A stretch of 64,000 nt of DNA from an uncultured Acidimicrobiaceae bacterium (lineage in GTDB: Bacteria; Actinomycetota; Acidimicrobiia; Acidimicrobiales; RAAP-2). A program made the translations under genes and the position numbers. Below, piece after piece: positions 41,065 to 63,330 of this stretch; position 1 is the stretch's first letter, and each line of letters starts with the position of its first letter. The notes under the pieces were generated by a model. That model was not told the DNA's origin. It saw nothing but the letters and a program-made list of their open reading frames with translations, and did not search any database. The stretch covers positions 367,529-431,528 of the forward strand of contig CAWAPQ010000013.1 in assembly GCA_963783965.1 (NCBI GenBank). The letters are read 5' to 3'.

Positions 41065-42321
41065 ATGGGGAAATTGTCTGGTAGGTACAGGGGCCGGTTG
41101 GGGCTGGCGGCTCTCGCGTGCACCGCGGGCGTCGGGGTCACGAGCCTGGCTGGCGGAGTTGCGAGCGCAGGGGCTTCGGGGTCGCCCATCACAATCGTGA
41201 TGATCACCTCGCTGACAGGTGAAGGGTCGTCGGAATTCAGCCAGGCACCGGCAGGCTTCAATGCCCGCATTGCGCTCCAGAACGCCCAAGGCGGGATCGA
41301 CGGTCACAAAATCAACGGCGTCGTGCTCGACGACCAGACCAGCCCGACGCAGATCGTGACGGCCGCGCAGGACGCCCTCTCGAAGAACCCGGCGGGCATC
41401 GTGTCGATCAGCCCGCTCTACTTCCTGGGCGACAAATACGCACAGCAGGCAGGCGTGCCCGTCACGGGCGGCTTCTTCGACGGTCCGGAGTGGGGCGAGC
41501 AGCCCTTCACCAACATGTTCGCCTCGGACGTGGGGAGCCTCAGCGACAAGTACCCGGTCAACACCGGCATCGGCGCCTTCATGAAGGCGCACGGCGGCAC
41601 GGTCGTCTGTTCGTACGGCTACGGGATCTCACCTTCGTCGAGCCGGTCCGCCATCGGCACGAACCTGTCGTTCGTGCACGCCGGCGGCAAGTCGGGCGTG
41701 CTCGACACCTCTATTCCCTTCGGCTCCGTGGCCATGACGACGCCGGCGCTCGCAGCAAAGCAGAAGGGGTGCGATGCGTACTACGCCGGGCTCGACGACA
41801 ACTCGAATGACGCTCTGGCGACTGCACTGCAGCAGGAAGGCGTCAAGCCGAAGGTCATGGTCTTCCCGACGGGCTACGAGCCCAGCGTGATCGGGACCCC
41901 GGCGTGGAAGGCCGTCCAGGGCGGCTACTTCGAGACCGAGTTCCGGCCGTTCTCACTGCCGAACGCCGGCACGCAGCAGATGCAGTCAGCTCTCGAGAAG
42001 TACGCGCACTTCAGCAAGACCGAGTTCCCGTCCTTCGCCCAGTACGAGTCGTGGCTCGGCGCCGACCTCATGATCAAGGGGCTGCAAATGGCCGGGCCGA
42101 CCGCGTCCCACGCCACCGTGATCAAGGACCTGCGCAGCATTAAGAGCTACAACGGCAATGGGTTGCTCCCGGAGTCCATCAACTACTCCACCGACTTCGG
42201 GAAGGACCTGCCGAAGTCGTGTGGGTGGTACATGAAGGCAGAGAAGAGCGGCTTCGTGGCCGTCTCGAGCCAACCGTATTGCGGGACGGACATTCCGGGC
42301 ACGACCACAGTGCAGGGGTAA
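41065..42321 (+). CDS. Liv-type ABC substrate-binding protein, orphan copy
   Basis: Signal-like GRLGLAALACTAGVGVTSLAGGVASA. By eye about 60% identical to the binding protein at 55888..57168. No adjacent permease or ATPase. ATG 41053 is an alternative start. Confidence 0.85.
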   Translation: MGKLSGRYRGRLGLAALACTAGVGVTSLAGGVASAGASGSPITIVMITSLTGEGSSEFSQAPAGFNARIALQNAQGGIDGHKINGVVLDDQTSPTQIVTAAQDALSKNPAGIVSISPLYFLGDKYAQQAGVPVTGGFFDGPEWGEQPFTNMFASDVGSLSDKYPVNTGIGAFMKAHGGTVVCSYGYGISPSSSRSAIGTNLSFVHAGGKSGVLDTSIPFGSVAMTTPALAAKQKGCDAYYAGLDDNSNDALATALQQEGVKPKVMVFPTGYEPSVIGTPAWKAVQGGYFETEFRPFSLPNAGTQQMQSALEKYAHFSKTEFPSFAQYESWLGADLMIKGLQMAGPTASHATVIKDLRSIKSYNGNGLLPESINYSTDFGKDLPKSCGWYMKAEKSGFVAVSSQPYCGTDIPGTTTVQG

Positions 42322-46306: not shown

Positions 46307-46356
46307 GGGCGCACGCTAGACGTTCATCCGCTCGCCGGACGGGGGCTCCGGTTTGA

Positions 46357-46370
46357 TGCAAAGCTTTGCA
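46357..46370. promoter_or_regulatory. 14-bp perfect palindrome TGCAAAGCTTTGCA in the MarR/GH1 divergent region (LacI-type operator candidate)
   Basis: Identical core to 21054..21067. Lies 64 nt upstream of the GH1 ATG. Confidence 0.5.
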
Positions 46371-46433
46371 GAGGCCAGGGCGGGCGTGTCACACTGCGGC
46401 CTTCCGGTCAGGCTTGCGACAGGAAGGACCGCG

Positions 46434-47669
46434 ATGGCACGGTTTCCACATGGCTTTCTCTGGGGCGCGGCCACAGCCGGACACCAGGTCGAAGGCGGCA
46501 ACGTCAACGCCGACATGTGGCCGATGGAATGGGCCCAGAACTCGACCTTCAACGAGCCGTCCGGCGACACGTGCGATCACTACCACCGCTATCCCGAGGA
46601 CATCGCGGCCCTCGCCGAGCTCGGACTCACCGCGTACCGCTTCTCCCTCGAGTGGTCCCGGATCGAACCCGAGCCGGGCTTCTATTCGCGGGCCGCGCTC
46701 GACCACTACGGGAGGATGATCGAGAGCTGCCTGCACAACGGCATCACGCCGGTGGTGACCTACAACCACTTCACGGTCCCGCGCTGGATGGCAGGCCGGG
46801 GCGGATGGAGTGCAGATGATGCACCGGCGCGCTTCGCGGACTATGCGGCGCGAGCGACGCAGCACTTCGGCGATCTCCTGTCGTGGGCCTGCACGCTGAA
46901 CGAGCCCAACCTCATGGCCATGATGCGGAGCACCGGCGTCCTGGCCATGGGCGCCGGAGACCGCTCACCGCGCCCCGAGCCTTTCGAATCGGAACGCGGT
47001 GGTGTCGGCGGCTTCGACCCGCGGCACTACCGGATGGGGATTGTGGCGGCCGACCTCGAGCGCATGGCGACGGCCCATCGACAGGCGGTGCAGGCGATCA
47101 AGGCGACGACGGGGGCCATCAAGACGGGGTGGACCCTGGCGCTCGTGGACTTCCAGCCGGCGGAGGGTGGCGAGGAACGGTGGCAGGAGGCACGGCGGGT
47201 GGCCCAGACCGACTGGCTCGCCGTCTCGGCCGACGACGACTTCGTCGGCGTGCAGACGTACTCCCGCGCCCGCATCGGACCGGAGGGGCAGCTGTCCGTG
47301 CCGGACGGGGCCGACACCATGCAGACCGGCTGGGAGGTCTACCCCGAGGCACTGGGACACACGGTCCGCCTCGCCGCGGAACACGCCGGCGTGCCCGTGC
47401 TCGTGACCGAGAACGGGATGGCGACCGACGACGACGCGAGCCGGCTGGCCTACATCCGTGCCGCGCTCGAGGGACTGGCCCGGGCCGTTGCTGACGGGGT
47501 CGACGTGCGCGGCTACCTGCACTGGACGCTGCTCGACAACTTCGAATGGAACGCCGGCTACTCCAAGACGTTCGGCCTCATCGCCGTCGACCGCGAGACC
47601 TTTGCCCGTTCGGTCAAACCCTCCGCCCGCTGGCTCGGTCAGGTGGCCCAGCGCAACGGCCTGGACTGA
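46434..47669 (+). CDS. GH1 beta-glucosidase
   Basis: MARFPHGFLWGAATAGHQVEG..YRFSLEWSRIEP..TLNEPN (acid/base)..LVTENGMAT (nucleophile). AGGAAGGA lies upstream of ATG 46434. Confidence 0.9.
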   Translation: MARFPHGFLWGAATAGHQVEGGNVNADMWPMEWAQNSTFNEPSGDTCDHYHRYPEDIAALAELGLTAYRFSLEWSRIEPEPGFYSRAALDHYGRMIESCLHNGITPVVTYNHFTVPRWMAGRGGWSADDAPARFADYAARATQHFGDLLSWACTLNEPNLMAMMRSTGVLAMGAGDRSPRPEPFESERGGVGGFDPRHYRMGIVAADLERMATAHRQAVQAIKATTGAIKTGWTLALVDFQPAEGGEERWQEARRVAQTDWLAVSADDDFVGVQTYSRARIGPEGQLSVPDGADTMQTGWEVYPEALGHTVRLAAEHAGVPVLVTENGMATDDDASRLAYIRAALEGLARAVADGVDVRGYLHWTLLDNFEWNAGYSKTFGLIAVDRETFARSVKPSARWLGQVAQRNGLD

Positions 47670-47696
47670 TCGCCGTCGCCGCCGTCGGCCGCTCCG

Positions 47697-48884
47697 TCAG
47701 CGTCGGCCGGGCCCGGCAGACCCGTCGACCTCGAACCCGACGCGCTCGATGTCGGGCGCCAACTGCGCCATGTCGAACCCGTACAGGCGCGCCGCGTTCT
47801 CGCACAGGATCTTGCGTGCCACGTCGGCACTGATACTCGGATGCTGCACCAATGCGTCGACCTGGGCGTTGGTCTCGGGGAACACCGATTCGAAGTGCGG
47901 ATAGTCCACCCCGAACATCGCGTTGTCACACCCGATGGCGAACGGCTGGTACTCGGCACTGGGACGGGCCAGCTCCTGGAGCGGAACCTGGTCGTCGGTG
48001 AAGGGCGAGATACCGGCGAAGCAATTGGCCGCCCAGTAGTCACGCGCCGAGCCCGTGAACTGGCGCATGCGCTGCAGCGTGTGAGCCCACCCCGTCCAAT
48101 CGTCCCCCCACTCGAGCCGACGGTCCAGCTTGCGGATCACCGGAGCGATCCAATCCGCCTCGGTCTCTATGAACGCGAGCCGCAGGTCGGGAAAGCGCGC
48201 GAAGACGCCGCCGAGGATCATCTGCCACAGGGAGCGGCCCGAGTAGAAGGAGTGCTCGAGCGCGAGGGTCATGATGGCGGCGAACCCGGGCGGCCCGTAG
48301 GCGGGCGCACCCGACCCCCCGTGCTGACTGATCGGCAGGCCCACGTCCACGCAGGCGGCCCACACCGGGTCGAGCGCAGGGTCGAAGAAGAAGGTCCCAC
48401 CGGGCAACAGGGCGGGCATCATGACGCCGCCCAGGCCGTGCTCCTTGGCCCAGTGGATGTCCGCCACCGCCAGGTCGACGTCGTCGAACGAGACCAGCGC
48501 CTGCCCGGCGCGACGGCCCGGCGTGTGGGCGCAGAAGTCGGCCAGCCAGCGGTTGTAGGCGAGACGCGCCTGCCGGTCGATCTCGGGGTCGGCGAACGAG
48601 CCCACGTCGTCGGCGGGCCTGGACTGGAACGGAAGCCCGTTCGGGAAGAGCACCTCGGCCACCACGCCCTGACTCTCCATGTCCTTGAGGCGCAGGTCCG
48701 AGTCCCACTGCGACGTGGGATCGAGTCCGGCGCTCAGGTTGCCGCTCTCGGGTGCACCCGCCGCTTCCTCCGCGCTCGCCCACGCATCGAAGGCAGGGAG
48801 GAAACGCTGCTCGACGTAGTTCCGGTAGTCGCTCCGTGAAGCCCGGACGTGTCCGTCCACCGAGATGATCGCGGTCTTCGCCAT
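47697..48884 (-). CDS. Amidohydrolase_2 family protein
   Basis: MAKTAIISVDGHV..AMFGVDYPHFES. Shares VFARFPDLR with the partial copy at 63476. Confidence 0.85.
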   Translation of the reverse strand: MAKTAIISVDGHVRASRSDYRNYVEQRFLPAFDAWASAEEAAGAPESGNLSAGLDPTSQWDSDLRLKDMESQGVVAEVLFPNGLPFQSRPADDVGSFADPEIDRQARLAYNRWLADFCAHTPGRRAGQALVSFDDVDLAVADIHWAKEHGLGGVMMPALLPGGTFFFDPALDPVWAACVDVGLPISQHGGSGAPAYGPPGFAAIMTLALEHSFYSGRSLWQMILGGVFARFPDLRLAFIETEADWIAPVIRKLDRRLEWGDDWTGWAHTLQRMRQFTGSARDYWAANCFAGISPFTDDQVPLQELARPSAEYQPFAIGCDNAMFGVDYPHFESVFPETNAQVDALVQHPSISADVARKILCENAARLYGFDMAQLAPDIERVGFEVDGSAGPGRR

Positions 48885-48970
48885 CGTCCCCCCTTTTCCG
48901 CACCGCCCTCAGGCGTGCACAAGGGTCATGCTAACGATTGCACGAGGCGAGAACCAGGGGATGGTGCCCG

Positions 48971-51544
48971 TCAGCCGAGCCCGCACGCGTAGGACGCGGT
49001 CCCCGGCCCTTGCTCACGGACGGAGCCGTCGGGCAACGCGACCTCGGCCGCCGTCCCTGGCGGCGCGGTCACCGTCACGAGAAGGGTCGACCCGTCGAGG
49101 TGCCACGCCGACTCAATGCGGCCGTAGGGCGAGTCATGGACGGCCTCCGCCCAGGTCAGCCCACCCCCGGGCCGGGGCGCCACCCGGAAGCGGCGGTAGG
49201 CGGGGTGACCGTCGAGCAGCGTGATGCCGGCGACGTAGTTGTGCAGGAACGAGATCACGGCGCCCTTGCTGTAGTGGTTCAGGGATTCGTGCGGACGGCC
49301 GTCCTCGTCGATTCCCTCCCACGCCTCCCAGACCGTCGTCGCGCCGCGCTCGACCATCGCCAACCAGGAGGGCGGCGTGTCCTGCAGCAAGAGCTCGTAC
49401 GCCACGGGGAGGTGGCCGTGGTCCGCCAGCACCGGCAACAGGTACGGCGTGGCCAGGAACCCGGTACCAAGGTGCGTGTCGTCCTCGCGGATCAGCTGCA
49501 CCAGCCGCTCCGCCGTCCGCGCGCGCAGCCCATCGGGCACGAGCCCGAAGGCGAGGGCGCGCACGTGATTCGCCTGGGTGTCGGGGGTGAGGGCGCCATC
49601 GGGCCCGATGAACTCGGCGCGCCAAGCGCGGAGCACGTCGGCAGCCAGCTCCTCGAAGCGCGCCGCCTCCGCGTCATGCCCGAGCATCCGACCGATGCGC
49701 GCGGCCAGCGCGGCGGAGTGCTGTAGGAACGCGGTCCCCACCGACCCCTGGTCCTTCTTCACGTGATCATGGGGTTGCGCGCCCGGCTCGAGCCATTCGC
49801 CCCAATGGTACGTCCCGTCCCAGATGAACTCCTCGTGCGGCGCCGGCTCGGGCCGGGCCGCCGCGCGGCTCTCGTGACGGTGCAGGGCCGCCGCCGCCGC
49901 GGCGAAGTCGACCCAGGACACCATGGACGGCCACAGCTCCGCCAGCACGTCGCTGTCGCCGTAAGCGCGCCACATCTCCCAGGGGACCATGACGATGGCG
50001 TCGCCCCACCCCGACGACCCCTGCATGTGCTGCCACAGGCCGGTGCTCTCCATGCGTTGGCGCAGCGGGTCCGGCGAGTAGTTGATGATCCGGCCGTCAG
50101 GGAGCTGCTCGGCCGCGACGTCCCGGAGCCACTTGAGGGAGAACCCCGCGACGTCGTAGAGAAAGGCACCGGTCGGGACGAACAGCTGCCAGTCCCCCGT
50201 CCAGCCGGCGCGCTCGCGTTGCGGGCAGTCCGTCGGGATTTCGCAGGCGTTGTCCCGGAACGACCATTCGGTGATGTCGTGCAGCCGGTTCAACCGCTCG
50301 TCGCTGCAGCGGAACCACCCCGTACGGCGCAAGTCCGTATGGACGACCACTCCAGTGACGTCGTCGGGAGTGAGCCGGTTCGGATGGCCCTCGATGCGCG
50401 CGTACCGGAAACCGTGGGTCGTGTGGCGCGGTTCGAACACCTCGCCGGGCGTGCCGGCGGCCACCACGTGATCGGTCATCCCGACCTTCATGTCGCCACC
50501 GAAGAAGTCGGGCGACAGGTGATCCTGGGTGACGTCGCCCGACGGATCGAGAAACTCGCCGTGGACGATGGTCAGCTCCGTGCCGGTGGGACCGACGTCG
50601 CACAGGCGCAGCCAGCCGTTGATGTTCTGCCCGAGGTCGACCACCTGGCGGTCGGACCCCAGCCGCGTGACGGCGACAGGCGGCAGCTCCTGCACCCTGC
50701 GGGTCGGCGGCGCCGGGGAATAGGCCAGGGACCCGAGGTCGTCGCCGACGACCGTGACGGCCTCCCAGGAGCCCGGGCTTTTCCGATGGTCCTCGCTCTG
50801 CCCCGCCATGAGGTCGGCGCTGAGGAGCGACCCGGTGCCGGATACCCAATCGGGGCCCGACGTGATCACGACGTCGCCGGCGTGGAGCTGGCCCAGGAAG
50901 CCGAGCGTGCCGCCGAAGCCATCGGTGCCCTGGAAGAACCCGGTGCGACCGCGCCACCACCCGTCCGAGAGCACGACCTCCCAGACGTTGTCGCCGGGAG
51001 CCAGCAGCGCGCCGACGTCGTAGACCTGGACGTGCAGGCTCGTCGGGTAGCTCGTGAAGCCCGGCGCCAGCTCGACATCACCGACACGCCGGCCGTTGAG
51101 GAAGGTCTCGTAGACCCCGTGGGCGGTGGCGTAGAGGCGGGCCTCCCGCGTCGGTGCTTTCAGGCGGAATGTGTGGCGCAGCACATGGGCGGACCGGGTG
51201 GTCTCCGCCGGCTCTATCCAGCGAGCGGCCCAGTCGGAAGGGTCGAGCAGTCCGGTCTCGAACCAGGCCGGGGACGACCACTCGCTCTCGGCCCCGCCGG
51301 CACCCCAGCTCTTCACCCTCCAGACGACCCGCTGCCGCGAGCTCAGGTCAGGACCGGGCCACGGGATCAGGACGCTGGCGTCGGACTCGACACGGTCCAG
51401 GACGCGGCCGTCGAGCTCTAGGACGTAGGCCTGCTGCCGCTCTGTGCCGGGCGGCAGCCGCCATGACAGGCGTGGCCGACGATCGCCGAGGCCGAGGACG
51501 GAGGCGCCGAGATGCTCGACCCCGAGGCGGGTGGGCGTGTTCAT
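48971..51544 (-). CDS. GH78 alpha-L-rhamnosidase
   Basis: 857 aa from MNTPTRLGVEHLG..PRLSWRLP..AHGVYETFLNGRRVGD..DCPQRERAGWTGD.. typical of bacterial rhamnosidases. The N-terminal part of the 978-aa track ORF is rejected. Confidence 0.9.
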   Translation of the reverse strand: MNTPTRLGVEHLGASVLGLGDRRPRLSWRLPPGTERQQAYVLELDGRVLDRVESDASVLIPWPGPDLSSRQRVVWRVKSWGAGGAESEWSSPAWFETGLLDPSDWAARWIEPAETTRSAHVLRHTFRLKAPTREARLYATAHGVYETFLNGRRVGDVELAPGFTSYPTSLHVQVYDVGALLAPGDNVWEVVLSDGWWRGRTGFFQGTDGFGGTLGFLGQLHAGDVVITSGPDWVSGTGSLLSADLMAGQSEDHRKSPGSWEAVTVVGDDLGSLAYSPAPPTRRVQELPPVAVTRLGSDRQVVDLGQNINGWLRLCDVGPTGTELTIVHGEFLDPSGDVTQDHLSPDFFGGDMKVGMTDHVVAAGTPGEVFEPRHTTHGFRYARIEGHPNRLTPDDVTGVVVHTDLRRTGWFRCSDERLNRLHDITEWSFRDNACEIPTDCPQRERAGWTGDWQLFVPTGAFLYDVAGFSLKWLRDVAAEQLPDGRIINYSPDPLRQRMESTGLWQHMQGSSGWGDAIVMVPWEMWRAYGDSDVLAELWPSMVSWVDFAAAAAALHRHESRAAARPEPAPHEEFIWDGTYHWGEWLEPGAQPHDHVKKDQGSVGTAFLQHSAALAARIGRMLGHDAEAARFEELAADVLRAWRAEFIGPDGALTPDTQANHVRALAFGLVPDGLRARTAERLVQLIREDDTHLGTGFLATPYLLPVLADHGHLPVAYELLLQDTPPSWLAMVERGATTVWEAWEGIDEDGRPHESLNHYSKGAVISFLHNYVAGITLLDGHPAYRRFRVAPRPGGGLTWAEAVHDSPYGRIESAWHLDGSTLLVTVTAPPGTAAEVALPDGSVREQGPGTASYACGLG

Positions 51545-51675
51545 GTGGGCAGCTCCATGATCCCTTTTGTGCAACATTACAACTTCGAACATCTGGCGTC
51601 GATTGGCTCTCGTGTCCGCAGATGCGGCCGGCTTTACGGTCTTCTTATGGATTCCGAATGCGGGAGCGCGCCTTT

Positions 51676-51816: not shown

Positions 51817-51948
51817 GGCGCGCCACGGGCCCGCCGTACCTCACAATCCTGTCATTCCGTCCCGCCTGCGGATGGTGCTCCCCGACGCCCGATTTCGGCC
51901 CGGGCAAAGGTGTCTAACATCGCCGTCAGCGAATCAAAAGGAGGGGCG

Positions 51949-52701
51949 TTGCGGACGGTTGTCGTAGGAGCTTCGAGCGGACTCGGGCGCTGCATCGGCG
52001 TCGGGCTCGCCCAGCGCGGGGCGAAGACCGCCCTGTTGGCCCGCCGGCAGCAGCGACTCGAGGGGGCAGCAAGGGAGGCGGGGCCGGGGACGCTGGCCAT
52101 CACGTGTGACGTGACCAGCACCGAGTCCTGCCAGTCCGCGGTGCGACAGGCCGCCGAGGGTCTCGGGGGCATTGACGCCCTGGTCTACGCACCGGGGATC
52201 GGTCCGCTGGCGCGCCTCGCCGACATGGACGCGGCGACGTGGCGGCAGGTCTTCGACACGAACGTGATCGGAGCGTCACTGGTGACGGCTGCCGCAGTGC
52301 CGTATCTCTCCGAGTCCTCGGGTACAGCCGTCTATCTCTCGTCGGTGAGCGCCTCCCAGACCCCCCCGTGGCCGGGCCTGGGTGCCTACGCGGTCAGCAA
52401 GGCCGCACTGGACAAGCTCGTCGAGGCCTGGAGGGGTGAGCACCCGGCGGTGGGATTCACCCGGGTCGTGGTGGGTGAGTGCATGGGTGGCCAAGGCGAC
52501 TCGACGCCGGGGTTCGCCGACGGCTGGGACCAGGAGCTGGCAGCGGAGGTGATGCCGGTGTGGTTCGCCCGCAACTACATGAGCGGGGCGTTTGTCGGCG
52601 TCGAGGACCTCATCACCGTCGTGGACACGGTCCTGCGTCATGGCGGCGGTGTCGCCATCCCGTCGGTGACGGTGGCCGGTCGCCTCGCCGGGGAGAGCTG
52701 A
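51949..52701 (+). CDS. Short-chain dehydrogenase/reductase (SDR)
   Basis: LRTVVVGASSGLGRCIG..YAVSKAAL. TTG 51949 is preceded by AAAGGAGG 5 nt upstream; the track ORF starts at GTG 51910. Confidence 0.85.
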   Translation: MRTVVVGASSGLGRCIGVGLAQRGAKTALLARRQQRLEGAAREAGPGTLAITCDVTSTESCQSAVRQAAEGLGGIDALVYAPGIGPLARLADMDAATWRQVFDTNVIGASLVTAAAVPYLSESSGTAVYLSSVSASQTPPWPGLGAYAVSKAALDKLVEAWRGEHPAVGFTRVVVGECMGGQGDSTPGFADGWDQELAAEVMPVWFARNYMSGAFVGVEDLITVVDTVLRHGGGVAIPSVTVAGRLAGES

Positions 52702-52718: not shown

Positions 52719-53876
52719 ATGCACGTCGAGCCCTACCCGTACCGAGCGAGCGCATCATGGGAGGGAAAGGTCGTGGCCCGATCCGGCTCGTGCCTCATTG
52801 CGGAGTCGTCCGGGACCCTTCCGGTCCTCTACTTCCCGGCGGCCGAACTCCAGGTGCAGGGGCGCGCGGGGCTGTCCGATCACCTGCGCCCGGCGGACGG
52901 CGAGCCGGGGCTCGCGGACTACGTCGCGTTCGACCAGGACCGGGTCGTGGTCGAGGTCACCGACGAGGACGACGGGGACGAGGAGCGCGATGTCACGGTG
53001 AAGCGGTTTCCCACCTGGGGCGATGCCGCGCACCTCGTGGACGTCATGGACGTCCAACCCACCGACGAGGGGCTCAGCTTCATCACCGTTGCCCGGAGCG
53101 ACGACCGACGCCCCGTCGTCGAGGGCAGCCAGATGCTCGGCCAGGCCATCGTGGCCGCCGGCCGGCATGCCGAGGACCGCCGCGTCGTCGCGGCCAACAT
53201 GATCTTCCTGCGGTCGGCCGATGCCCGTCTGCCGCTGCGCTTGGAACTGGCCGAGCTCAGCTCCGGCCGCACGTTCTCCGGCTTGGCGGTCCAGGTGTTC
53301 CAGCGCGACCGCCTGTGCGCCGCGGGCACGCTGCTGCTCGACGTGCCGTCCGACGACGTCATCCGGCACGCGCCGGACCCTCCGGACGTGGCCGGACCGT
53401 TCGCATGCGAACCGTACGATATGGGCGTGACCGGTCGCGACGTCAGAGTGGTCGACAGCGCCTACTCGAACGATCCCGACGCGCCGGAGGGACCACCCAC
53501 GGTGGACGCCTGGGTGCGCTTCCGCCATCTGCCCGACGATCAGCCCATCCATGCCGGCCTGCTGGCGCAATTCACCGGCCACATGTCGATTGCCGCCGCC
53601 CTGCGCCCCCACGCCGGAGTCAGCCAGGACCAAGCGCACCGGACGCTCTCCATGGCGATCAACAGCATCAGCCTGTCGCTGCACGGTCCGGTCAAGGCCG
53701 ACGACTGGCTGCTCTACCGCCACCTCTCGACGTATGCCGGCGCCGGTACGACCCATGCCGAGAACCGGGTGTACGACCGTGACGGTGCGCTCGTTGCCTC
53801 ATTCTCCGTCGACGCCATGGTGCGGCCGCTCCCCGCGGGAGCCAAGGGCCCCATGGACGCACGTACCGCGCTGTGA
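52719..53876 (+). CDS. Fusion protein: N-terminal degenerate DUF427-like domain plus acyl-CoA thioesterase II (TesB-like double hotdog)
   Basis: N-terminus ASWEGKVVARSGSCLIAESSGTLPVLYFPAAEL..ADYVAFDQDRVVVEV (DUF427 pattern). The rest is collinear with TesB (..NMIFLRSADARLPLRLELAELSSGRTFS..DDWLLYRHLSTYAGAGTTHAENRVYDRDGALVASFSVDAMVR). Confidence 0.8.
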   Translation: MHVEPYPYRASASWEGKVVARSGSCLIAESSGTLPVLYFPAAELQVQGRAGLSDHLRPADGEPGLADYVAFDQDRVVVEVTDEDDGDEERDVTVKRFPTWGDAAHLVDVMDVQPTDEGLSFITVARSDDRRPVVEGSQMLGQAIVAAGRHAEDRRVVAANMIFLRSADARLPLRLELAELSSGRTFSGLAVQVFQRDRLCAAGTLLLDVPSDDVIRHAPDPPDVAGPFACEPYDMGVTGRDVRVVDSAYSNDPDAPEGPPTVDAWVRFRHLPDDQPIHAGLLAQFTGHMSIAAALRPHAGVSQDQAHRTLSMAINSISLSLHGPVKADDWLLYRHLSTYAGAGTTHAENRVYDRDGALVASFSVDAMVRPLPAGAKGPMDARTAL

Positions 53877-54550
53877 GCCTCACGACGGGTCGAGGCCCGC
53901 TCAGCGCCACGCCCGCAGGACGGTTCACGATCCCCATGCCGGAGAACGTGTCATACATCGAACCGTTCCGCCGGCGTGTCAGGGCGAAGAAGGGCGGCCG
54001 GACGGTGATCGACAGCGAGCGCGCCGTACTGATGCACCGGCCCGGTCAGCCGCCCACCTTCGCCTTCCCGGACCACGACATTGCCGGGCTTCCGACGAAC
54101 GACGAGGAAGACGCTCCGGGCTATGTGACAGTGTCGTGGGATGCCGCCGACGCCTGGTTCGAGGAGGACGAACAGATCTTCGGACATCCTCGGAATCCTT
54201 ACCACCGCGTGGACTGTCTGCACTCCCATCGTCACCTGCAAGTGCAGGCCGCCGGCGCCACACTGGTCGACACGACAGAGACCATGGCCGTGTACGAGAC
54301 AGCGCTTGAACCTCGCCTGTACGTCCACCCTCGCCACGTGCAGGCCGAACTGACTCGGAGTCAGCTGGCGACCTATTGCCCGTACAAGGGCACTGCCACG
54401 TATTGGAACGTCGTCGTGGAGGGAGTGCTCCTCACGGACGTCGCCTGGAGTTACGAGGAAGCACTTCCGGAGTCCGCCCCCCTCCAGCATTTGGTGAGCT
54501 TCGATGACCGCCGGGTCTCGGTCAAGCATGACCTCCCGGCCGCCGACTGA
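53873..54550 (+). CDS. DUF427 domain-containing protein (two-repeat type)
   Basis: EPFRRRVRAKKGGRTVIDSERAVLM..WDAADAWFEEDEQIFGHPRNPYHRVD..TYCPYKGTATYWNV..DVAWSYEEALPES. GTG 53873 overlaps the upstream stop (GTGA). Confidence 0.8.
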   Translation: MSLTTGRGPLSATPAGRFTIPMPENVSYIEPFRRRVRAKKGGRTVIDSERAVLMHRPGQPPTFAFPDHDIAGLPTNDEEDAPGYVTVSWDAADAWFEEDEQIFGHPRNPYHRVDCLHSHRHLQVQAAGATLVDTTETMAVYETALEPRLYVHPRHVQAELTRSQLATYCPYKGTATYWNVVVEGVLLTDVAWSYEEALPESAPLQHLVSFDDRRVSVKHDLPAAD

Positions 54551-54638: not shown

Positions 54639-55478
54639 ATGGTGCTTGAGACACTGTTGTACGAGCAGCAGGACGGTGTCGCCATCGTCACCATGAACCG
54701 CCCCGAGGTCCACAACGCGTTCAACCACCGGATGCAAGCGGAGCTCCACGGATTGTGGCGTCACCTCCGGCGCAACGACGATGTCAGAGCCATCGTCCTC
54801 ACGGGAGCCGGAGACGAGGCGTTCTGCGCCGGGATCGACCGGGACGAGACCATTGAGGAGAGCTATCTCGCCAATGAGGAGAACCGCTACAAAATGCAGG
54901 GCAAGGCGGGTCCCGTCGCGACGCCCTTCATGTACAACGATCCCGGGGTCAACATCAACCCGAAGACGAACGACCTGTGGAAGCCGATCGTCGCCGCCGT
55001 CAACGGGATGGCCTGTGGCGGCGCCCTCTACATGCTCGGGGAGTCGGACATCATCATCGCGGCCGAACACGCGACGTTCTTCGACCCCCACGTGACCTAC
55101 GGGATGGTGGCGGGCTTCGAGTCCACCCACCTGCTCCAGAAACTGCCCCTGGGCGAGGTGCTCCGCGTGATGCTGCTCGGTGCGTGGGAGCGCATGTCGG
55201 CCGAGCGCGCCCACCAGGTGGGGCTGGTCTCCGAGGTCGTGCCGGCAGCGGAGCTCCGCGAGCGGGCCCTCTGGGTGGCGAAGGCCATCGCGTCGGCGCC
55301 GGTCATGGCGGTTCAGGGGACGCTGCGAGCCATCTGGATGACCCATGAGCTCAGCCGGCGCGAAGCCCTCTCACAGGTCTCGACCTTCGTCGCGCTCGGG
55401 ACGCTCTTCGACGACATCGCCGGGGGCCAGGAGATCTTCCGGGAGACCGTGTCCCGCCCTGAGTGGCGGCTCCGCTGA
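54639..55478 (+). CDS. Enoyl-CoA hydratase/isomerase (crotonase) family protein
   Basis: MVLETLLYEQQDGVAIVTMNRPEVHNAF..AFCAGID..AAVNGMACGGALYML. Confidence 0.85.
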   Translation: MVLETLLYEQQDGVAIVTMNRPEVHNAFNHRMQAELHGLWRHLRRNDDVRAIVLTGAGDEAFCAGIDRDETIEESYLANEENRYKMQGKAGPVATPFMYNDPGVNINPKTNDLWKPIVAAVNGMACGGALYMLGESDIIIAAEHATFFDPHVTYGMVAGFESTHLLQKLPLGEVLRVMLLGAWERMSAERAHQVGLVSEVVPAAELRERALWVAKAIASAPVMAVQGTLRAIWMTHELSRREALSQVSTFVALGTLFDDIAGGQEIFRETVSRPEWRLR

Positions 55479-55887: not shown

Positions 55888-57168
55888 TCAGCTCGCCGTC
55901 GACGTCCCGGCCAGGTCCTTCCCGCATGACGGCTTCGACGAAATCGCCGTGAAGTCGGTCGGGCCGGCCTTCATGACCCAGGCGCAGGTCTGAGCCGGGT
56001 CATGCCCGAAGTTGTTGGTGTAGTTCAAGTTGTAGGGCAGCAACCCGTTGGCGTTGTACGCCTTGAGGCTCCGCAGGTTCTTGATCACCGCGGCCTTGGT
56101 CGGGTTGGATCCCGCCATCTGCAGGCCCTTGATCATGAGGTCGGCGCCGGCCCACGACTCGTACTGGCCCAGATTCGGGAACTGGGTCTTGGTGAAGTGG
56201 GCGTACTTCTGCATGGCGGCCTGCATCTGCTGAGTCCCGGCGTTGGGCAGCGACCACGGGCGGAAGGGCGTGAGGAAGTAGCCACCCTGCACGACCTTCC
56301 ACGCCGGGGACTTGATCACGTCAGGCTGGTACCCGCTGGCGTAGATGGCCGTCTTGATCTTCACGCCGGCCTGCTGCAACGCCGTGGCCAGGGCGTAGTT
56401 GGAGTCGGCGTCCATGGCAGGCGAAATAGCGTTGACTCCGTTCTTCTTCGCCACCAGCGCCTCACTGGTGAAGTCGACGCCACCGAAGGGGACGGTGGTG
56501 TCGAGCACGCCGACCTTGCCGCCCGCGTGCTTGAACGAGTCGGCCGTCGCGATGGCGGCCCGGCTCGACGACGGCGAGATGCTGTAGCCGTACGCGCCGA
56601 GGGTGGTGGCGCCCAGCTTCTTGAACAAGTCGCCCAGCTGCGTGTTGACCGGGTACTTGGGGTCGACGCTGCCTTCGTCGGACGCGAACATATTGGTGTT
56701 CGGCTGTGTGCCCCACTCCGGCCCGTCGTCGTAGGTGCCGGTCACGGGCATGCCGGCCTGCTGCGGGTACTTGGCGGCCAGGAACATCAACGGGCTCTGC
56801 GAGACGATCCCGATCGCGCCCTTGGAGATGGCGCTCTGCACGGCGGTGGCGATCTCACTTGGGTTGGTCTGGTCGTCGATGGTGATCCCGACGAGCTTGT
56901 GCCCGTTCACGCCGCCTTGGGCGTTCTGCAGCGCGATGCGCGCGTTGAAGCCCGCCGGAGAGGTCCCGTTCTGGGACCCGCCCTCTCCCGTCAGGTCGGT
57001 GATGTAGGCAATCGTGATCGGCGCCGGCGCTGCGGCGGCCGTCACGGCGGTCGTGCCAACGAGGAGGAGCGGCACGCCGGTCAACATGCCCAGCGCCACG
57101 GGGACGATCGTCGGCAGGCGCCTCCGCGTCGATCCGCCTCGGTTGATGCGTCGTTGCACGGTCTGCAT
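55888..57168 (-). CDS. Liv-type ABC substrate-binding protein
   Basis: MQTVQRRINRGG..signal-like VALGMLTGVPLLLVGTTAVTAAAA. Paralogue of 41065..42321. Last gene of the importer operon. Confidence 0.85.
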   Translation of the reverse strand: MQTVQRRINRGGSTRRRLPTIVPVALGMLTGVPLLLVGTTAVTAAAAPAPITIAYITDLTGEGGSQNGTSPAGFNARIALQNAQGGVNGHKLVGITIDDQTNPSEIATAVQSAISKGAIGIVSQSPLMFLAAKYPQQAGMPVTGTYDDGPEWGTQPNTNMFASDEGSVDPKYPVNTQLGDLFKKLGATTLGAYGYSISPSSSRAAIATADSFKHAGGKVGVLDTTVPFGGVDFTSEALVAKKNGVNAISPAMDADSNYALATALQQAGVKIKTAIYASGYQPDVIKSPAWKVVQGGYFLTPFRPWSLPNAGTQQMQAAMQKYAHFTKTQFPNLGQYESWAGADLMIKGLQMAGSNPTKAAVIKNLRSLKAYNANGLLPYNLNYTNNFGHDPAQTCAWVMKAGPTDFTAISSKPSCGKDLAGTSTAS

Positions 57169-57250
57169 GCCTCCCCGGATCCCCTGCCGGAAGATCCCTC
57201 TCGTGTCGCCGTACACTGAGCCAGCGCTCGTGGGTTGTAATGACCGGTCG

Positions 57251-58000
57251 TTACTGTAGCGAACCCCCAGCCGCCGCAGGGGTCGCCGGCTCGGCGTCGC
57301 CGAGGTAGCGGTCGATGACCTCTTGCCCGGCCTCCGCGGCAGGGCCGAACCAGCCCACCTGGCCCCGCATCAGGATCACGCAGGCGTCCGCCATGGAGAG
57401 GGCACGGTGGACGAATTGCTCGGTCAGAACGATGGTGATCCCCGACCGCCGGGCTTCCTCGAGGGCCTCGAAGACGGACTCGGTCACGATCGGCGCCAGA
57501 CCGAGCGACATCTCGTCGGCGATGATGAGCGTGGGCGAGACGGCCAGCGCCCTGGCCAGGGCCAGCATCTGCTGCTCGCCCCCCGACAGGCTCCCTGCCC
57601 GCTGCCCTCTGCGTTGACCCAAGACCGGAAAGCGGTCGATGGCCCGGTCGATGGCGGCGGCGCGCTCGTGTCGCTTCTCCTGGGCCACCGCCATGCGCAG
57701 GTTGTCGACGACGGACAGGCCCGGGAAGATGCCTCGTCCCTCCGGGATGTAGGTCAACCCGAGCTTTCGAATGCGGTGCGCCGGCTGTCCGGTGATCTCG
57801 TGGCCGTCGAAGAAGACCCGGCCGCTGGTGGTGGGAACCAACCCCGAGACCGCACGCGCCAATGTGCTCTTGCCCGCTCCATTGGCACCCAGGACGGCGA
57901 GAACCGTGCCCGGATCCACCGTGAGGGAAACGCCGAAGAGGGCGCGCGACGACCCGTAGCGAACATCGAGGTTCTCGACGGTGAGGAGAGGATCGGTCAC
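57251..58000 (-). CDS. Branched-chain-amino-acid-type ABC transporter ATP-binding protein (LivF-like)
   Basis: GANGAGKSTL, LSGGEQQML, LIIADEMSLGL. Confidence 0.9.
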   Translation of the reverse strand: MTDPLLTVENLDVRYGSSRALFGVSLTVDPGTVLAVLGANGAGKSTLARAVSGLVPTTSGRVFFDGHEITGQPAHRIRKLGLTYIPEGRGIFPGLSVVDNLRMAVAQEKRHERAAAIDRAIDRFPVLGQRRGQRAGSLSGGEQQMLALARALAVSPTLIIADEMSLGLAPIVTESVFEALEEARRSGITIVLTEQFVHRALSMADACVILMRGQVGWFGPAAEAGQEVIDRYLGDAEPATPAAAGGSLQ

Positions 58001-58863
58001 GCCGAGTTTCCCCCGGTGGGCGCCGGCTCGGCCGGGGGACCCGGCTCCGGGTCGGTGTCGCCCAGGTAGGCGGCCCGCACCGCGGGGTCGTTGCGGATCT
58101 CCTCGGGGCTCCCCACGGCGATGCGCTCACCGAAGTCGAGCACGAAGACGATGTCGGACAGCGACAGCACCGCGGCCACGTCGTGCTCCACCATGATGAG
58201 AGAGACCCGGTGGTCCGGTTGATCGACGATCTGGCGGAAGACCGACAGCAGGTTCTCCGACGCCTTGATGTCGAGGCCCGAGAGCGGCTCGTCCAAGAGG
58301 AGCACGTTCGGCTCGCTGGCCAGTGCCCTCCCGACCTCGACCAGGCGCAGGATGCCGAGCGGCAGCGCCGCCACGGGCGCTTTCTCGACCTTGGTGAGCC
58401 GCAAGAGCTCGAGCAGCTCGTCCACCCGCTCGCTCTCCTCCCGCGAGGGCGGGAGGAGAGAGCGCGGATCGAGCATGTCGCGCCACAGCCGTGTCGGGGC
58501 CGTCCGAGCGCGATGGGCGAGTTGGAGGTGCTCGCGCACGGTGAGACCCATGAAGAGTTCAGGCTGCTGGAACGTCCGCGCCAGACCCTTGCGTGCCCGC
58601 GCCCGGCACGACGCGTTGGTGACGTCGGCCCCGTGCAGATGCACCTTGCCCCTGTTGGGGCGGAGGAGGCCGGACAGGACAGCCAGCAGCGTTGACTTTC
58701 CGGCACCATTCGGCCCGACCAGGCCTGCGATCTGGCCTGGCTGGACCTCGAGGCTCACGTCAGACAGGGCGGTGAGGCCTCCGAAGCGAACGGTGATGTC
58801 GCGCGCCGCCAGGGCGGCGCCCTCGGCTCCGACGGCCCGAGCAGTCTCGCCCGTGGTCGGCAT
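57997..58863 (-). CDS. Branched-chain-amino-acid-type ABC transporter ATP-binding protein (LivG-like)
   Basis: From MPTTGETA (ATG 58863, overlapping the permease stop by 1 nt). GPNGAGKSTLL, LLLLDEPLSGL. Confidence 0.9.
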   Translation of the reverse strand: MPTTGETARAVGAEGAALAARDITVRFGGLTALSDVSLEVQPGQIAGLVGPNGAGKSTLLAVLSGLLRPNRGKVHLHGADVTNASCRARARKGLARTFQQPELFMGLTVREHLQLAHRARTAPTRLWRDMLDPRSLLPPSREESERVDELLELLRLTKVEKAPVAALPLGILRLVEVGRALASEPNVLLLDEPLSGLDIKASENLLSVFRQIVDQPDHRVSLIMVEHDVAAVLSLSDIVFVLDFGERIAVGSPEEIRNDPAVRAAYLGDTDPEPGPPAEPAPTGGNSA

Positions 58864-60875
58864 CACGATATGTGCTCCGCTACGCGTGTCGGCACCGGCC
58901 CGACGTCCGCGGTGGCCAACGTCAGGTCGGCCAGTTCGGCGCCCTGCTGTTGCGGCCGCAGGTGGAGGACGAGACGACGGAGTCGGCGACTCTGCTCGGC
59001 CAGCACGCCGTCGGGGTACTTGGCCGCCGACACCGCGCCGAGACCGAAGAGCACCGGCGTCACGTTCGAGGTCCAGGTCGGTAGGTAGTTCTGGGTGACG
59101 GCAGGGAGCAGGGCCAACGAGACCCCGCCCAGCAGTGCCGCAGCGTTGGAGCGAACGCCCCACGTCACGAGCACGGCCAGCCAGACCACGCCCTCGAAGG
59201 TGGCGAACTCGCTGGGCTGGAAGGTCGTCTGGGACAGGGCGAAGAGACCTCCGCCGATCCCGGCGATCAGTGCTGCGAGCGCCCCGGCAATGACCTTCTG
59301 CTGCACCACGCTGATGCCCGACGTCTTTGCCCCGGCCTCACTCCAGCGCGCCGCGTTGAGAGCCAGGCCGGTGGTCGATCGTCGGAAGTTGACGATGAAG
59401 AGCGCAATGATCACGAAGGCGGCGAGACACAGATAAGCAAAGGCACGATCGGAGGCGGCGAAACCCGGTCGATTGAGCGTAAGACCCAAACCCTGGTTCA
59501 CGAAGGTGGGCAGCGTGAAAACGAGGTTCTCCATCAAGAGCCCGAACGTCAGCGTCACCAGGGCGACGTACAGATCGCCGAGGCGGATGCTGAGCAGGCC
59601 GACGACGACACCCATCGCCAGCGCCACGACACCGCCGGCGAGGACGGCCAACAGAACCGGCCACCCGTGGTTGTTCGCCAGTTGGGCAGTGGTCAGCGCG
59701 CCCACCCCGGCGAAGGTGATCTGACAGAGCCAGAGCATGCCGCCCTCTCCCGTGACGATTGTCCAGGAGAGGAGGATGACCGCGTAGGCGAATCCGGCGG
59801 CCATCACGCCGACCCAGTAGCCCTGCACAATGAGCGGGATGACGCCCACGACCGCGATCAGGAGCACCGGTCCGGCGTAGCGGCCGAAGAATCCGAGGGA
59901 TGCGGACTCGACCACGTTGCTGGTGGACCCCGCCAGACGGCTCTCGCCCTGGGGCGTGATGGCACGGTCGAGCGCGCCACCCCAGCCGTCCGTCTCGCCG
60001 ACTCGACCGCGGCGGAGCAGCTCGTAGACGAGAACGACGGCGACGACAATGAAGGGCACGGCGTCGATGAACTCCGTCGTCCACGAGCTCGAGGGCGGGA
60101 GGTAACCCTCAATGAGCGAGGTGGCGATGCCCATGAGAAGGGCCACGACCACGGCCACCGTCAGGTTCCGCAGCCGCGCTGCCACGACGGCGGCGAACGA
60201 CGCGGCGATGAGGATCGTGAACTTGTCGGGGTCGAGACCGACGATGGGGGCTGCCAGCACTCCGGCCAGCCCGGCAAAGAGGGTGCTGACGGCCCAGACC
60301 CCGACGGAAATGAAGGTCGGATTGGTGCCCGAGAGGTCCGTCATCGCCGGTGAGTCGACCATCGCCCGCACCTTGAGCCCCACGTCGGTGTAGCGCAGGA
60401 TCAGCGCGCCGGCGATCACGGTCGCGAGCACGCAGGCGTAGACGATGACCTGATCGAGCGTGACCGCGACGCCGAAGACCTGGTAGACGGCGACCGGCTG
60501 CGGCGCGAGCCCCGGCGCCGACTGGATGGCCTGGTTGCCGAAGATCAACACGGCCGCCGCCGGGATGGCCACCAGCAGGCCAATCGTCGCCACCACCTTG
60601 ATCATGGGTGAGGACAGGCGCAGATGCCGGAACAGCACGAAGTAGAGGAACACCCCCAACGCAGGCGAGGCCACCACAATGGAGAGGACCGCAGCCGGCA
60701 GGATCGACCAGCTGTGCTGCGTGTTGAGGAAGTAGTAGAAGCGGGCGATGAAGAAGGCCATGGCTCCGAAGGCGAAGTTCAGAATCCCCGACGCCGTGTA
60801 GGTGATGACCAGGCCTGCGGAGCAGATCGCATAGATCCCTCCCAGCACCAGTCCGGCGATCACGAATTGCAGCAT
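58863..60875 (-). CDS. Fused LivH-LivM-type ABC transporter permease
   Basis: 670 aa. The N-terminal half is LivH-like (MLQFVIAGLVLGGIYAICSAGLVITYTASGILNFAFG). The C-terminal half is LivM-like (IVTGEGGMLWLCQITFAGVGA). Confidence 0.9.
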   Translation of the reverse strand: MLQFVIAGLVLGGIYAICSAGLVITYTASGILNFAFGAMAFFIARFYYFLNTQHSWSILPAAVLSIVVASPALGVFLYFVLFRHLRLSSPMIKVVATIGLLVAIPAAAVLIFGNQAIQSAPGLAPQPVAVYQVFGVAVTLDQVIVYACVLATVIAGALILRYTDVGLKVRAMVDSPAMTDLSGTNPTFISVGVWAVSTLFAGLAGVLAAPIVGLDPDKFTILIAASFAAVVAARLRNLTVAVVVALLMGIATSLIEGYLPPSSSWTTEFIDAVPFIVVAVVLVYELLRRGRVGETDGWGGALDRAITPQGESRLAGSTSNVVESASLGFFGRYAGPVLLIAVVGVIPLIVQGYWVGVMAAGFAYAVILLSWTIVTGEGGMLWLCQITFAGVGALTTAQLANNHGWPVLLAVLAGGVVALAMGVVVGLLSIRLGDLYVALVTLTFGLLMENLVFTLPTFVNQGLGLTLNRPGFAASDRAFAYLCLAAFVIIALFIVNFRRSTTGLALNAARWSEAGAKTSGISVVQQKVIAGALAALIAGIGGGLFALSQTTFQPSEFATFEGVVWLAVLVTWGVRSNAAALLGGVSLALLPAVTQNYLPTWTSNVTPVLFGLGAVSAAKYPDGVLAEQSRRLRRLVLHLRPQQQGAELADLTLATADVGPVPTRVAEHIS

Positions 60876-62421: not shown

Positions 62422-63330
62422 TCAGGAGTCGGCTCGGACCTTGTCTTTGAGGGCGGGGACGATCGGCGGTGCGTCCTTCCAGTTCGGGAGGCCGCTGTCC
62501 TCCTTGGCCACGGGGTAGCCGTCGTCGTTGACCTGGGCCCAGTGCGAATGGTTGAGCTCGTGCAGGGTGAAGCAGGCATTGAGCGCGTTGTAGAACCCCA
62601 TGTTGTCCACGCTCTGGTTCACGGCTTCCTTGACCAGCAATGACGTCACCGACGGCAGCACGGCGATCCGCTCGGCGAACTCCTCGGTCCGTTGCGTGAG
62701 GTCCTCGGCCGGAAAGATCTTGCTGACCATGCCGAGGCCATGTGCCTCCTCGGCGTCGATGGAGTCGCCGGTCAGGAGCAGTTCCTTCGCCTTGCGCGGG
62801 CCGAACTCCCACGGGTGGGCGAAGTACTCCGTGCCGCACATGCCCAGGCGCGTTCCCACCACGTCGGCGAAGCGCGTCCCCTCGGCGCAGACGATGAGGT
62901 CGCATGCCCACAGCAGCATCAGCCCGGCCGCATAGACATCCCCGTGCGCCTGCCCGATGGTGATTTTGCGCAGATTGCGCCAACGCCGCGTGTTCTCGAA
63001 GTAGTAGTGCCACTCCTGGAGCATGAGACTCTCAGCACCCTTACGCGTCGCACCATTGATCTTGCGGGTGTAGTGCTGGTTCGGCCCCGGCATGCCTTCT
63101 TCCATGGCGACCTTGGAACCCATGTCGTGTCCCGACGAAAACATCGGACCCATGCCGCCCAGGATGACCACCCGGACCTCGTCGTCTGCCTCCGCTTCGA
63201 GGAACGCGTCGTTCAAATCGACCAGGAGCCCACGGTTCTGGGCGTTGCGCGCCTCGGGACGGTTGAGCATGATGCGCGCCACCTTCCCCGAGTCGAGCGT
63301 CTCGTACGTCACGAATTTGTAGTCAGTCAT
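62422..63330 (-). CDS. Enoyl-CoA hydratase/isomerase (crotonase) family protein
   Basis: MTDYKFVTYETLDSGKVARIMLNRPEARNAQN..FSSGHDMG..AHGDVYAAGLML. AAGGAG lies 8 nt upstream of the ATG. Confidence 0.85.
   Translation of the reverse strand: MTDYKFVTYETLDSGKVARIMLNRPEARNAQNRGLLVDLNDAFLEAEADDEVRVVILGGMGPMFSSGHDMGSKVAMEEGMPGPNQHYTRKINGATRKGAESLMLQEWHYYFENTRRWRNLRKITIGQAHGDVYAAGLMLLWACDLIVCAEGTRFADVVGTRLGMCGTEYFAHPWEFGPRKAKELLLTGDSIDAEEAHGLGMVSKIFPAEDLTQRTEEFAERIAVLPSVTSLLVKEAVNQSVDNMGFYNALNACFTLHELNHSHWAQVNDDGYPVAKEDSGLPNWKDAPPIVPALKDKVRADS

Follow-up and report, generated by a model that had tools for sequence, protein, structure and literature searches.

A conserved gene pair in an uncultured Acidimicrobiaceae bacterium couples DUF427 to a protein predicted to have the TesB double-hotdog fold. 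The first gene (gene A) encodes the hotdog protein fused to a degenerate DUF427 domain, and the second (gene B), which starts on the stop codon of the first, encodes a separate DUF427 protein whose motif is intact. Together, an old and conserved fusion, a stop/start overlap found in 77 of 77 intact pairs and a pocket kept in fusions without a partner gene and lost from most with one argue that the intact DUF427 pocket, whether in cis or in trans, functions with the hotdog enzyme within neighbourhoods of SDR, crotonase and acyl-CoA dehydrogenase genes. The features concerned lie in the 64,000-nucleotide stretch that was analysed (the window):

51910..52701, plus strand: SDR gene (PF00106, 115.9 bits), the first gene of the conserved core
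52719..53876, plus strand: gene A, 385 aa by translation, a degenerate DUF427 domain plus a TesB-fold double hotdog (PF13622 and PF20789 over cut-offs)
52719..53009, plus strand: N-domain of gene A, residues 1-97, a DUF427 derivative without the CPYKG hairpin (partial PF04248 match, hhalign, Foldseek)
53010..53873, plus strand: linker (KRFPTWGDA) and TesB-fold double hotdog of gene A, residues 98-385 (Foldseek, phmmer)
53873..53876, plus strand: GTGA, start of gene B over the stop of gene A (GTG at 53873-53875, TGA at 53874-53876)
53873..54550, plus strand: gene B, a 225-aa DUF427 protein that combines a single complete DUF427 repeat with a short module lacking the motif and a conserved tail at the N-terminus
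54377..54406, plus strand: CPYKGTATYW motif in the complete repeat of gene B, the only intact DUF427 pocket of the pair
54639..55478, plus strand: crotonase / enoyl-CoA hydratase family gene (PF00378, 134.5 bits), a facultative member of the cluster
55888..60875, minus strand: convergent Liv-type ABC transporter of a binding protein, two ATPases and a permease (Peripla_BP_6, ABC_tran, BCA_ABC_TP_C and BPD_transp_2 matches)

The original prediction had given the same coordinates and frames for the pair, the GTGA overlap, an SDR gene before it and a crotonase gene after it, all of which held. It had also read the N-terminus of gene A as a DUF427 copy lacking CPYKG, and the N-domain is indeed a true DUF427 derivative despite its sub-threshold Pfam score (16.4 bits when the whole protein is scored and 20.3 bits for the segment alone, against a PF04248 gathering cut-off of 22.1 bits), with a match covering only positions 3-37 of the 93 in the profile. 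Four lines of evidence establish the homology: PF04248 matches 85 of 101 full-length relatives; hhalign aligned the N-domain with canonical DUF427 over 91 columns (96.4% probability, E 1.5e-9); the sole confident Foldseek match of its model was PDB 3DJM, the DUF427 protein of Rhodobacter sphaeroides, which has the same fold (probability 1.0, TM 0.65); and gene A aligns colinearly with complete DUF427-thioesterase fusions. CPYKG is missing because of an internal deletion, visible in the hhalign alignment as a 28-residue gap over the motif. Both the C-P-Y-K-G...Y-W hairpin and the A-W-x-Y segment are absent, with 'DVAWSYEE' of canonical DUF427 standing opposite 'LSDHLRPA' of the N-domain.

The decayed domain nonetheless remains constrained, its first beta-meander and last strands being under purifying selection (dN/dS 0.14-0.50, vs 0.11-0.24 for the hotdog part). 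All AF2 models were of single chains; a Foldseek search with full-length gene A returned hotdog proteins only, and the N-domain was therefore modelled separately. The full-length model (pLDDT 86.4, pTM 0.88) suggests, from its pTM, a fixed arrangement of the domains.

Gene B is a full member of the family: residues 123-212 cover PF04248 positions 2-92 at 102.6 bits, placing its C-terminal repeat in the same family as 3DJM. It had been predicted to carry two full repeats with CPYKGTATYW intact; the motif is intact as described, but the N-terminal half is short and motif-less (14.7 bits, profile positions 1-36 only). Like the N-domain of gene A, this half has no central hairpin, and the pocket residues left in both are the Glu and Tyr of the first meander only. 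Among 34 orthologs of gene B, C169, P170, Y171, K172 and G173 are invariant, as is the N-terminus MSLTTGRGPLS..PAGRF, whose conservation from residue 2 fixes the start codon. Invariance of Cys, Lys, Tyr, Trp, Glu and Asp extends to two distant paralogs. The genome contains the tail SLTTGRGPL a single time, and a paralog lacks it; a search of NCBIfam profiles gave gene B no specific name.

The tail pattern recovered 80 species-level Acidimicrobiaceae loci, and the fusion lies directly upstream of gene B in all of them. A 4-nt [A/G]TGA overlap is kept in every one of the 77 intact pairs (53 GTGA, 24 ATGA), across paired proteins down to ~53% identity, and by this conserved overlap of start and stop the two genes appear to be a translationally coupled pair.

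Fusions with and without the partner gene differ sharply in the state of the DUF427 domain. Overall, C-P-x-K/R-G was lost from 69 of 75 partnered fusions and kept in 6, with PF04248 scores of 16.4-48 bits and 28 short forms of the domain, whereas all 11 partner-less fusions (from other Acidimicrobiia, Pseudonocardia and Mycolicibacterium) match the profile at full length with 68.8-110.3 bits; related genomes are not independent in this comparison, and the contrast is partly a single evolutionary event, since the partnered state probably arose once. Among partnered fusions, well-supported tree branches require the length class of the domain to have changed independently at least 5 times, and the hairpin was lost from the fused copy repeatedly, by independent deletions.

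The closest systems compared are the partner-less fusions themselves, which JGI already names 'DUF427 family/acyl-CoA thioesterase'. Identity between gene A and WP_344415654.1 of Pseudonocardia ailaonensis is 32% across the two domains (E 5e-51), and both the latter and a 437-aa protein of Mycolicibacterium sp. XJ1819 share the colinear architecture of gene A, with the linker RFPxWGD. As at the gene A locus, an SDR gene adjoins them, here with a 4-nt overlap between it and the fusion gene, and there are acyl-CoA genes in the vicinity. In these proteins DUF427 is intact (82.8-110.3 bits) with CxYKG kept, and there is no DUF427 partner gene; in gene A, by contrast, the hairpin is gone (16.4 bits) and a coupled partner gene is present.

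We consider it somewhat probable that genes A and B work as a single functional module in an actinobacterial pathway of the acyl-CoA type, along the following lines. The ancestral form is one polypeptide with an intact DUF427 domain, the RFPxWGD linker and a TesB-fold double hotdog, and Pseudonocardia, Mycolicibacterium and other Acidimicrobiia still have it with no partner gene. In the Acidimicrobiaceae form, a separate DUF427 gene begins on the stop codon of the gene for the fusion, whose own hairpin has been lost repeatedly. The DUF427 pocket (Cys/Lys/Tyr/Trp) would be required beside the hotdog enzyme, either on the same chain or as a separate protein; the fused domain, once decayed, would have become a scaffold, most likely a predicted docking surface for gene B, and translational coupling would set the stoichiometry of the two products. 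More tentatively, the pocket might bind a small ligand (a thioester, free CoA or a related metabolite) and control or feed the hotdog enzyme, which in turn might hydrolyse a CoA thioester made by the neighbouring SDR and crotonase steps.

Mammalian ACOT11 and ACOT12 may provide a working analogy for how such a module operates. Both are double-hotdog acyl-CoA thioesterases fused to a START lipid-binding domain, and this small-ligand-binding accessory domain modulates the thioesterase. Their accessory domain is C-terminal, has a different fold and shares no homology with DUF427, and these proteins are not known to have a split cis/trans arrangement.

A second reading, which has an appreciable but lesser chance of being right, makes DUF427 the enzyme of a neighbouring step, acting on the acid or CoA released by the hotdog protein (for example, a 3-oxo acid after the SDR), so that fusion and coupling serve substrate channelling. 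The residues invariant in gene B orthologs and distant paralogs would suit a catalytic role no less than a binding one, the conserved core consists of the SDR, hotdog and DUF427 genes, and enzymes such as MsrB and GFA are among the other beta-tent proteins (PMC4287342). However, our literature search found no activity on record for any DUF427 protein, a fusion of DUF427 to an adenylate/guanylate cyclase (P0380), which puts the domain in the position of a sensor, fits sensing better, and retention of the decayed fused copy suits docking better than channelling.

Readings of the module also depend on the chemistry of the hotdog part. Gene A had been described as carrying a complete TesB-type double hotdog, a description that stands for the fold and fails for the catalytic residues. 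Both Pfam thioesterase domains score over their cut-offs (PF13622 38.1 bits, PF20789 52.8 bits), phmmer matched the TesB structures 4QFW and 1C8U at E 1e-13 to 1e-16, and the predicted model superposes on 1C8U (E 1.5e-23, TM 0.80 normalised to target), consistent with the double-hotdog fold of acyl-CoA thioesterase II (TesB) from E. coli and Yersinia pestis (1C8U, 4QFW). Unlike TesB, gene A has the additional 97-aa N-domain and conserved linker, and the TesB catalytic triad, which we take from structural work on TesB to be Asp204/Thr228/Gln278, is not conserved: in HMMER alignments with 4QFW and 1C8U, whose register is uncertain by one residue, D204, T228 and Q278 fall on G287, I314 and V364. 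One position past these columns, the gene A family has H288, N315 and D/E365; H288 and N315 are invariant in the partnered family, and the Pseudonocardia fusion lacks N315. Because the triad is not conserved, we infer thioesterase activity for gene A rather than assign it.

These replacements leave an unlikely alternative in which the hotdog protein is not a thioesterase and is instead a binding protein or a catalyst of another hotdog-fold reaction, with DUF427, for instance by way of its invariant Cys, providing the chemistry that is missing. Such a departure would agree with the loss of the triad, with a score of 71.8 bits for the NCBIfam TesB equivalog TIGR00189, far under its cut-off of 292.85, and with a different set of residues invariant in the gene A family (H288, H298, H307, N315, H346 and E348). 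It sits less well with the Pfam thioesterase matches, with the structural matches at E <=1e-14, which are TesB-type or putative thioesterases plus one uncharacterised hot-dog protein, and with the one-residue uncertainty in register, given a Gln at position 365 in a deep clade; moreover, hotdog thioesterases are well known to vary in their catalytic residues.

A little less likely again is a composite active site, in which the hotdog protein, having lost the catalytic Asp of TesB, would depend on the DUF427 Cys/Lys, for instance through an acyl-S-Cys intermediate or thiol exchange with CoA. If true, DUF427 would be a previously unrecognised catalytic module for handling thioesters or thiols, which could also explain why DUF427 is found together with 5.7% of ergothioneine-type gene clusters (PMC13674229).

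Gene context is consistent across related loci. In 77 of the 80 loci the fusion is preceded by an SDR ortholog, giving a conserved core of SDR gene, hotdog fusion and DUF427 gene that includes no CoA ligase or transferase. A crotonase ortholog (>=61% identity) follows in about 50 of the 80, and crotonase, acyl-CoA dehydrogenase, thiolase and MaoC genes occur nearby. Most related loci also have the Liv-type ABC transporter downstream, a conserved neighbour and at most a candidate member of the unit. Upstream rhamnosidase and GH1 genes were rejected as core members, being clade-specific insertions. A scan for promoters and terminators gave nothing above shuffled expectation, and neither the Amidohydro_2 protein nor the binding protein received a specific name from NCBIfam, which matched the SDR and crotonase only generically.

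The link to thioesterases is specific to the fusion subfamily and does not generalise to DUF427. The original prediction had taken fusion and coupling to tie the family to acyl-CoA or thioester chemistry; the tie to a hotdog enzyme stands, but at 40 other actinobacterial DUF427 loci (40 genomes) a family HMM detected no TesB-like gene at a distance of up to 7 kb, and none near two DUF427 paralogs in the window's own genome. Ordinary DUF427 genes likewise had no acyl-CoA neighbourhood. No Pfam family recurred in more than 2 of 129 ORFs neighbouring ordinary DUF427 genes, in a census based on rough longest-ORF gene calls with 9 loci dropped, and long open frames around DUF427 matches (363-773 aa) held DUF427 only, with no other fusion. 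The family was present in 48 of 121 sampled Actinomycetota genomes; it occurs mainly in bacteria and fungi and has a beta-tent fold without the zinc site (PMC4287342). A crystal structure has been available since 2008, and a whole-word literature search found no characterised function, in agreement with the original prediction.

The inconsistent context of generic DUF427 genes, and the confinement of the association between fusion and gene B to one lineage, would suit a vestigial structural cap in gene A beside a merely syntenic gene B of unrelated function. We regard this as very unlikely, given an overlap that persists in all intact pairs despite protein divergence, a fused pocket that decays only where gene B is present and a gene B tail found only in partners of the fusion. 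A true thioesterase start downstream, leaving the N-terminal segment untranslated, can be set aside: the ATG at 52719 has no clear Shine-Dalgarno sequence upstream, but the N-terminal 97 aa are conserved as protein from the start methionine in 101 homologs, show dN/dS <0.5, have a confidently predicted fold and are colinear with the complete fusions.

Together, these results narrow the tests that could reveal what DUF427 does, by naming a protein beside which it works, a TesB-fold hotdog in SDR/crotonase clusters, and the part that matters, the CPYKG pocket, which is kept whenever no second copy exists. Cultured carriers of the simple one-protein form are at hand in Pseudonocardia ailaonensis and Mycolicibacterium sp. 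XJ1819. The locus also illustrates clearly how, in nature, a fused domain can decay, probably into a scaffold, once a trans-acting copy is available, and the gene A/gene B pair offers a testable handle on the role of a widespread domain.

Four genes run in the same direction in the window, with the SDR gene before the gene A–gene B pair and the crotonase gene after it, as the original prediction had placed them. Gene A encodes an N-terminal DUF427-derived domain (residues 1-97), a linker and a double hotdog of the TesB fold; gene B encodes a DUF427 protein.

41053-42321 (+), second Peripla_BP_6 binding-protein gene, flanking the region
46353-51601, GH1 beta-glucosidase (+), Amidohydro_2 (-) and GH78 alpha-L-rhamnosidase (-) genes, just upstream of the SDR gene
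47697-48884 (-), the Amidohydro_2 (PF04909) gene, upstream of the SDR gene
51910-52701, SDR gene, directly before gene A
52719-53876, gene A, 385 aa
53873-54550, gene B, 225 aa
54639-55478, crotonase gene, after gene B
62422-63330 (-), second crotonase-family gene, flanking the region

The GTG of gene B (53873-53875) overlaps the TGA of gene A (53874-53876), and the predicted start of one gene on the stop codon of the other recurs as an [A/G]TGA overlap in 77/77 intact pairs (53 GTGA, 24 ATGA). A one-genome-per-species scan yielded 146 gene B relatives, of which the best 80 loci were retained, all from Acidimicrobiaceae or Acidimicrobiales MAGs, with orthologs counted by tblastn. Across these best 80 of 146 loci, the fusion gene ended at the DUF427 gene start in every case (80/80), with an SDR upstream in 77, a Liv-type ABC transporter ATPase downstream in 71 and a crotonase downstream (≥61% identity) in approximately 50, establishing a two-gene architecture with a conserved stop/start overlap. 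The upstream Amidohydro_2, GH1 and rhamnosidase genes are restricted to certain clades, and because the rhamnosidase was found in just 17 of the 80 loci, it appears to have been inserted between Amidohydro_2 and the SDR. An Amidohydro_2 ortholog lies upstream in approximately 30 of the 80; a 30% identical gene adjoins a fusion lacking a downstream DUF427 gene (hereafter partner-less) in genome G196 (locus L157, 5816-6676), and with a further one at locus L183 (1351-2427), PF04909 genes recur near fusions of separate clades.

The N-terminus of gene A had been claimed as DUF427, an assignment that fell below the PF04248 gathering threshold itself (16.4 bits in the whole protein and 20.3 in isolation; cut-off, 22.1; profile positions 3-37 of 93) but held in profile–profile, structural and family comparisons. 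A profile of 35 N-domains matched the canonical DUF427 repeat profile (96.4% probability, E 1.5e-9, 91 columns) and recovered ordinary DUF427 genes of other genomes. In that alignment the window sequence has a 28-residue gap over 'TYCPYKGTATYW...', in line with the predicted absence of the conserved CPYKG motif. Homologs of gene A from a homolog search (385-432 aa, from Acidimicrobiales) all keep the extension from Met1, and the longer ones carry 30-45 additional residues exactly at the gap, in some cases containing SCPEKGEVEYL or SCPVRGEVELL; PF04248 matched 85/101 full-length family members at E ≤0.01 (best, 1.1e-12). When the N-domain was modeled by itself with AF2 (pLDDT 78), its one confident PDB neighbor was the DUF427 structure, 3DJM (E 6e-3, probability 1.0, TM 0.65); the second-ranked match had an E value of 0.75. 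Together, these results demonstrate homology to DUF427 and identify the segment as a decayed derivative. It is also translated and under constraint: within the short-form clade, its dN/dS was 0.14-0.50 versus 0.11-0.24 for the hotdog part, which rules out a thioesterase start codon downstream of the domain.

For the remainder of gene A, Pfam detected 4HBT_3 (residues 135-205) and 4HBT_3C (residues 245-361) above their cut-offs, and the full-length model (pLDDT 86.4, pTM 0.88) matched Escherichia coli TesB (1C8U; E 1.5e-23, TM 0.80) and, similarly, Y. pestis TesB. The fold of the proposed TesB-type thioesterase was thus upheld, but its catalytic residues did not align: in HMMER alignments, TesB Asp204, Thr228 and Gln278 are matched to G287, I314 and V364. 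One residue further along are H288 and N315, both invariant in the partnered family (N315 is not retained in the Pseudonocardia fusion described below), and D/E365, and because position 365 is Gln in deep-branching relatives, the alignment could be shifted by one residue. Gene A scored 71.8 bits against the NCBIfam TesB equivalog (cut-off, 292.85), and we therefore infer thioesterase activity from fold and family; that the hotdog protein is not a thioesterase is a live alternative.

Gene B had been described as a full two-repeat DUF427 protein with CPYKG. Its PF04248 match is strong (102.6 bits) and the motif is invariant across 34 orthologs, but only the C-terminal repeat is complete, with the N-terminal half covering profile positions 1-36 (14.7 bits). 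This short half is also what BLASTP matched to the gene A N-domain (E 7e-4); neither of these two modules carries the motif, which leaves the pair with a single intact pocket. The first 18 residues of gene B (window 53873-53930; MSLTTGRGPLSxxPAGRF) are nearly invariant in the 34 orthologs, which fixes the overlapping start codon. This tail occurs once in the genome, is absent from a two-repeat paralog and is present only in DUF427 genes following a fusion, making it a candidate docking peptide.

We compared 75 fusions, 74 partnered by a downstream DUF427 gene and one partner-less outgroup (L157 from G196). C-P-x-K/R-G was retained in six, including L157, and absent in 69; short forms (≤106 aa) numbered 28. 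In a maximum-likelihood phylogeny built from the hotdog part, motif-bearing fusions diverge early and well-supported branches force at least five independent changes of domain-length class. Fusions with an intact CP[FV]KGxAxxW were found in seven genomes of other Acidimicrobiia families (six in one family), and no DUF427 gene was found in their flanks. Representative and third homolog searches revealed colinear fusions in two cultured organisms, Mycolicibacterium sp. XJ1819 and Pseudonocardia ailaonensis. The latter (WP_344415654.1; 32% identity to gene A over both domains, E 5e-51) keeps the linker RFPLWGD and, unlike gene A, an intact motif (TCRYKGTARYW). No neighboring DUF427 gene was found at four loci with such fusions (Pseudonocardia, Mycolicibacterium and two metagenomic). 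Gene order is ACAD, ECH, SDR, ACAD, ACAD, TetR, SDR, fusion, MFS, thiolase, MaoC in Pseudonocardia and ECH, SnoaL, SDR, fusion in Mycolicibacterium (SDR/fusion overlap, 4 nt), while the metagenomic loci contain SDRs, Amidohydro_2, ACADs and a second TesB-like gene; the SDR–fusion pairing therefore extends across actinobacterial classes.

PF04248 scores cleanly separated partner-less fused domains (110.3, 99.8, 99.7, 99.2, 94, 82.8 and 68.8 bits) from partnered ones (48, 46.3, 38.5, 36.1 and 20.9, with the window at 16.4), demonstrating that partner presence is inversely related to pocket retention. The partnered state probably had a single origin, so the contrast does not represent many independent events. 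Within the partnered clade hairpin deletions recur, and outside it an intact domain persists over far deeper divergence, a pattern that fits relaxed constraint on the fused pocket given a copy in trans. A second complete fusion copy in genome G362 (C3:383748-385000) lies in three collinear pieces in different frames, and is probably a frameshifted pseudogene or assembly error.

As the original prediction stated, literature using the name DUF427 assigns it no function; it is described as a beta-tent fold without a zinc site (PMC4287342) and occurs in 5.7% of thiohistidine-type gene clusters (PMC13674229). We found DUF427 in 48/121 sampled Actinomycetota genomes. The proposed association with thioesterases did not extend beyond the fusion family: no TesB-like gene lay within 7 kb of 40 DUF427 genes (40 genomes) or of two paralogs in the window's genome, so the link is a property of this subfamily, not of the whole family. 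Among 129 neighboring ORFs, based on heuristic gene calls, no Pfam family recurred more than twice. A metagenomic protein (P0380, 524 aa) fuses an intact N-terminal DUF427 (88.6 bits, FCPFKGNANHF) to an adenylate/guanylate (class III) cyclase catalytic domain (PF00211, 32.4 bits); the N-terminal position beside such a domain is the usual place of a sensor domain. Three further proteins (P0276 and P0284, 573 and 599 aa; P0337, 476 aa) match DUF427 three or four times in tandem, with P0337 showing three stretches and no other domain by Pfam.

DUF427 had been proposed to act on or sense acyl-CoA or thioester intermediates. The fusion, the gene overlap and the pattern of pocket retention together suggest that the hotdog enzyme requires an adjacent DUF427 pocket, supplied in cis or in trans. 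More tentatively, and on the model of acyl-CoA thioesterases that carry a START domain, DUF427 might bind a thioester-related ligand and modulate or feed the enzyme; that DUF427 is itself catalytic is a live alternative. The decayed fused domain would be kept as a scaffold or docking surface.
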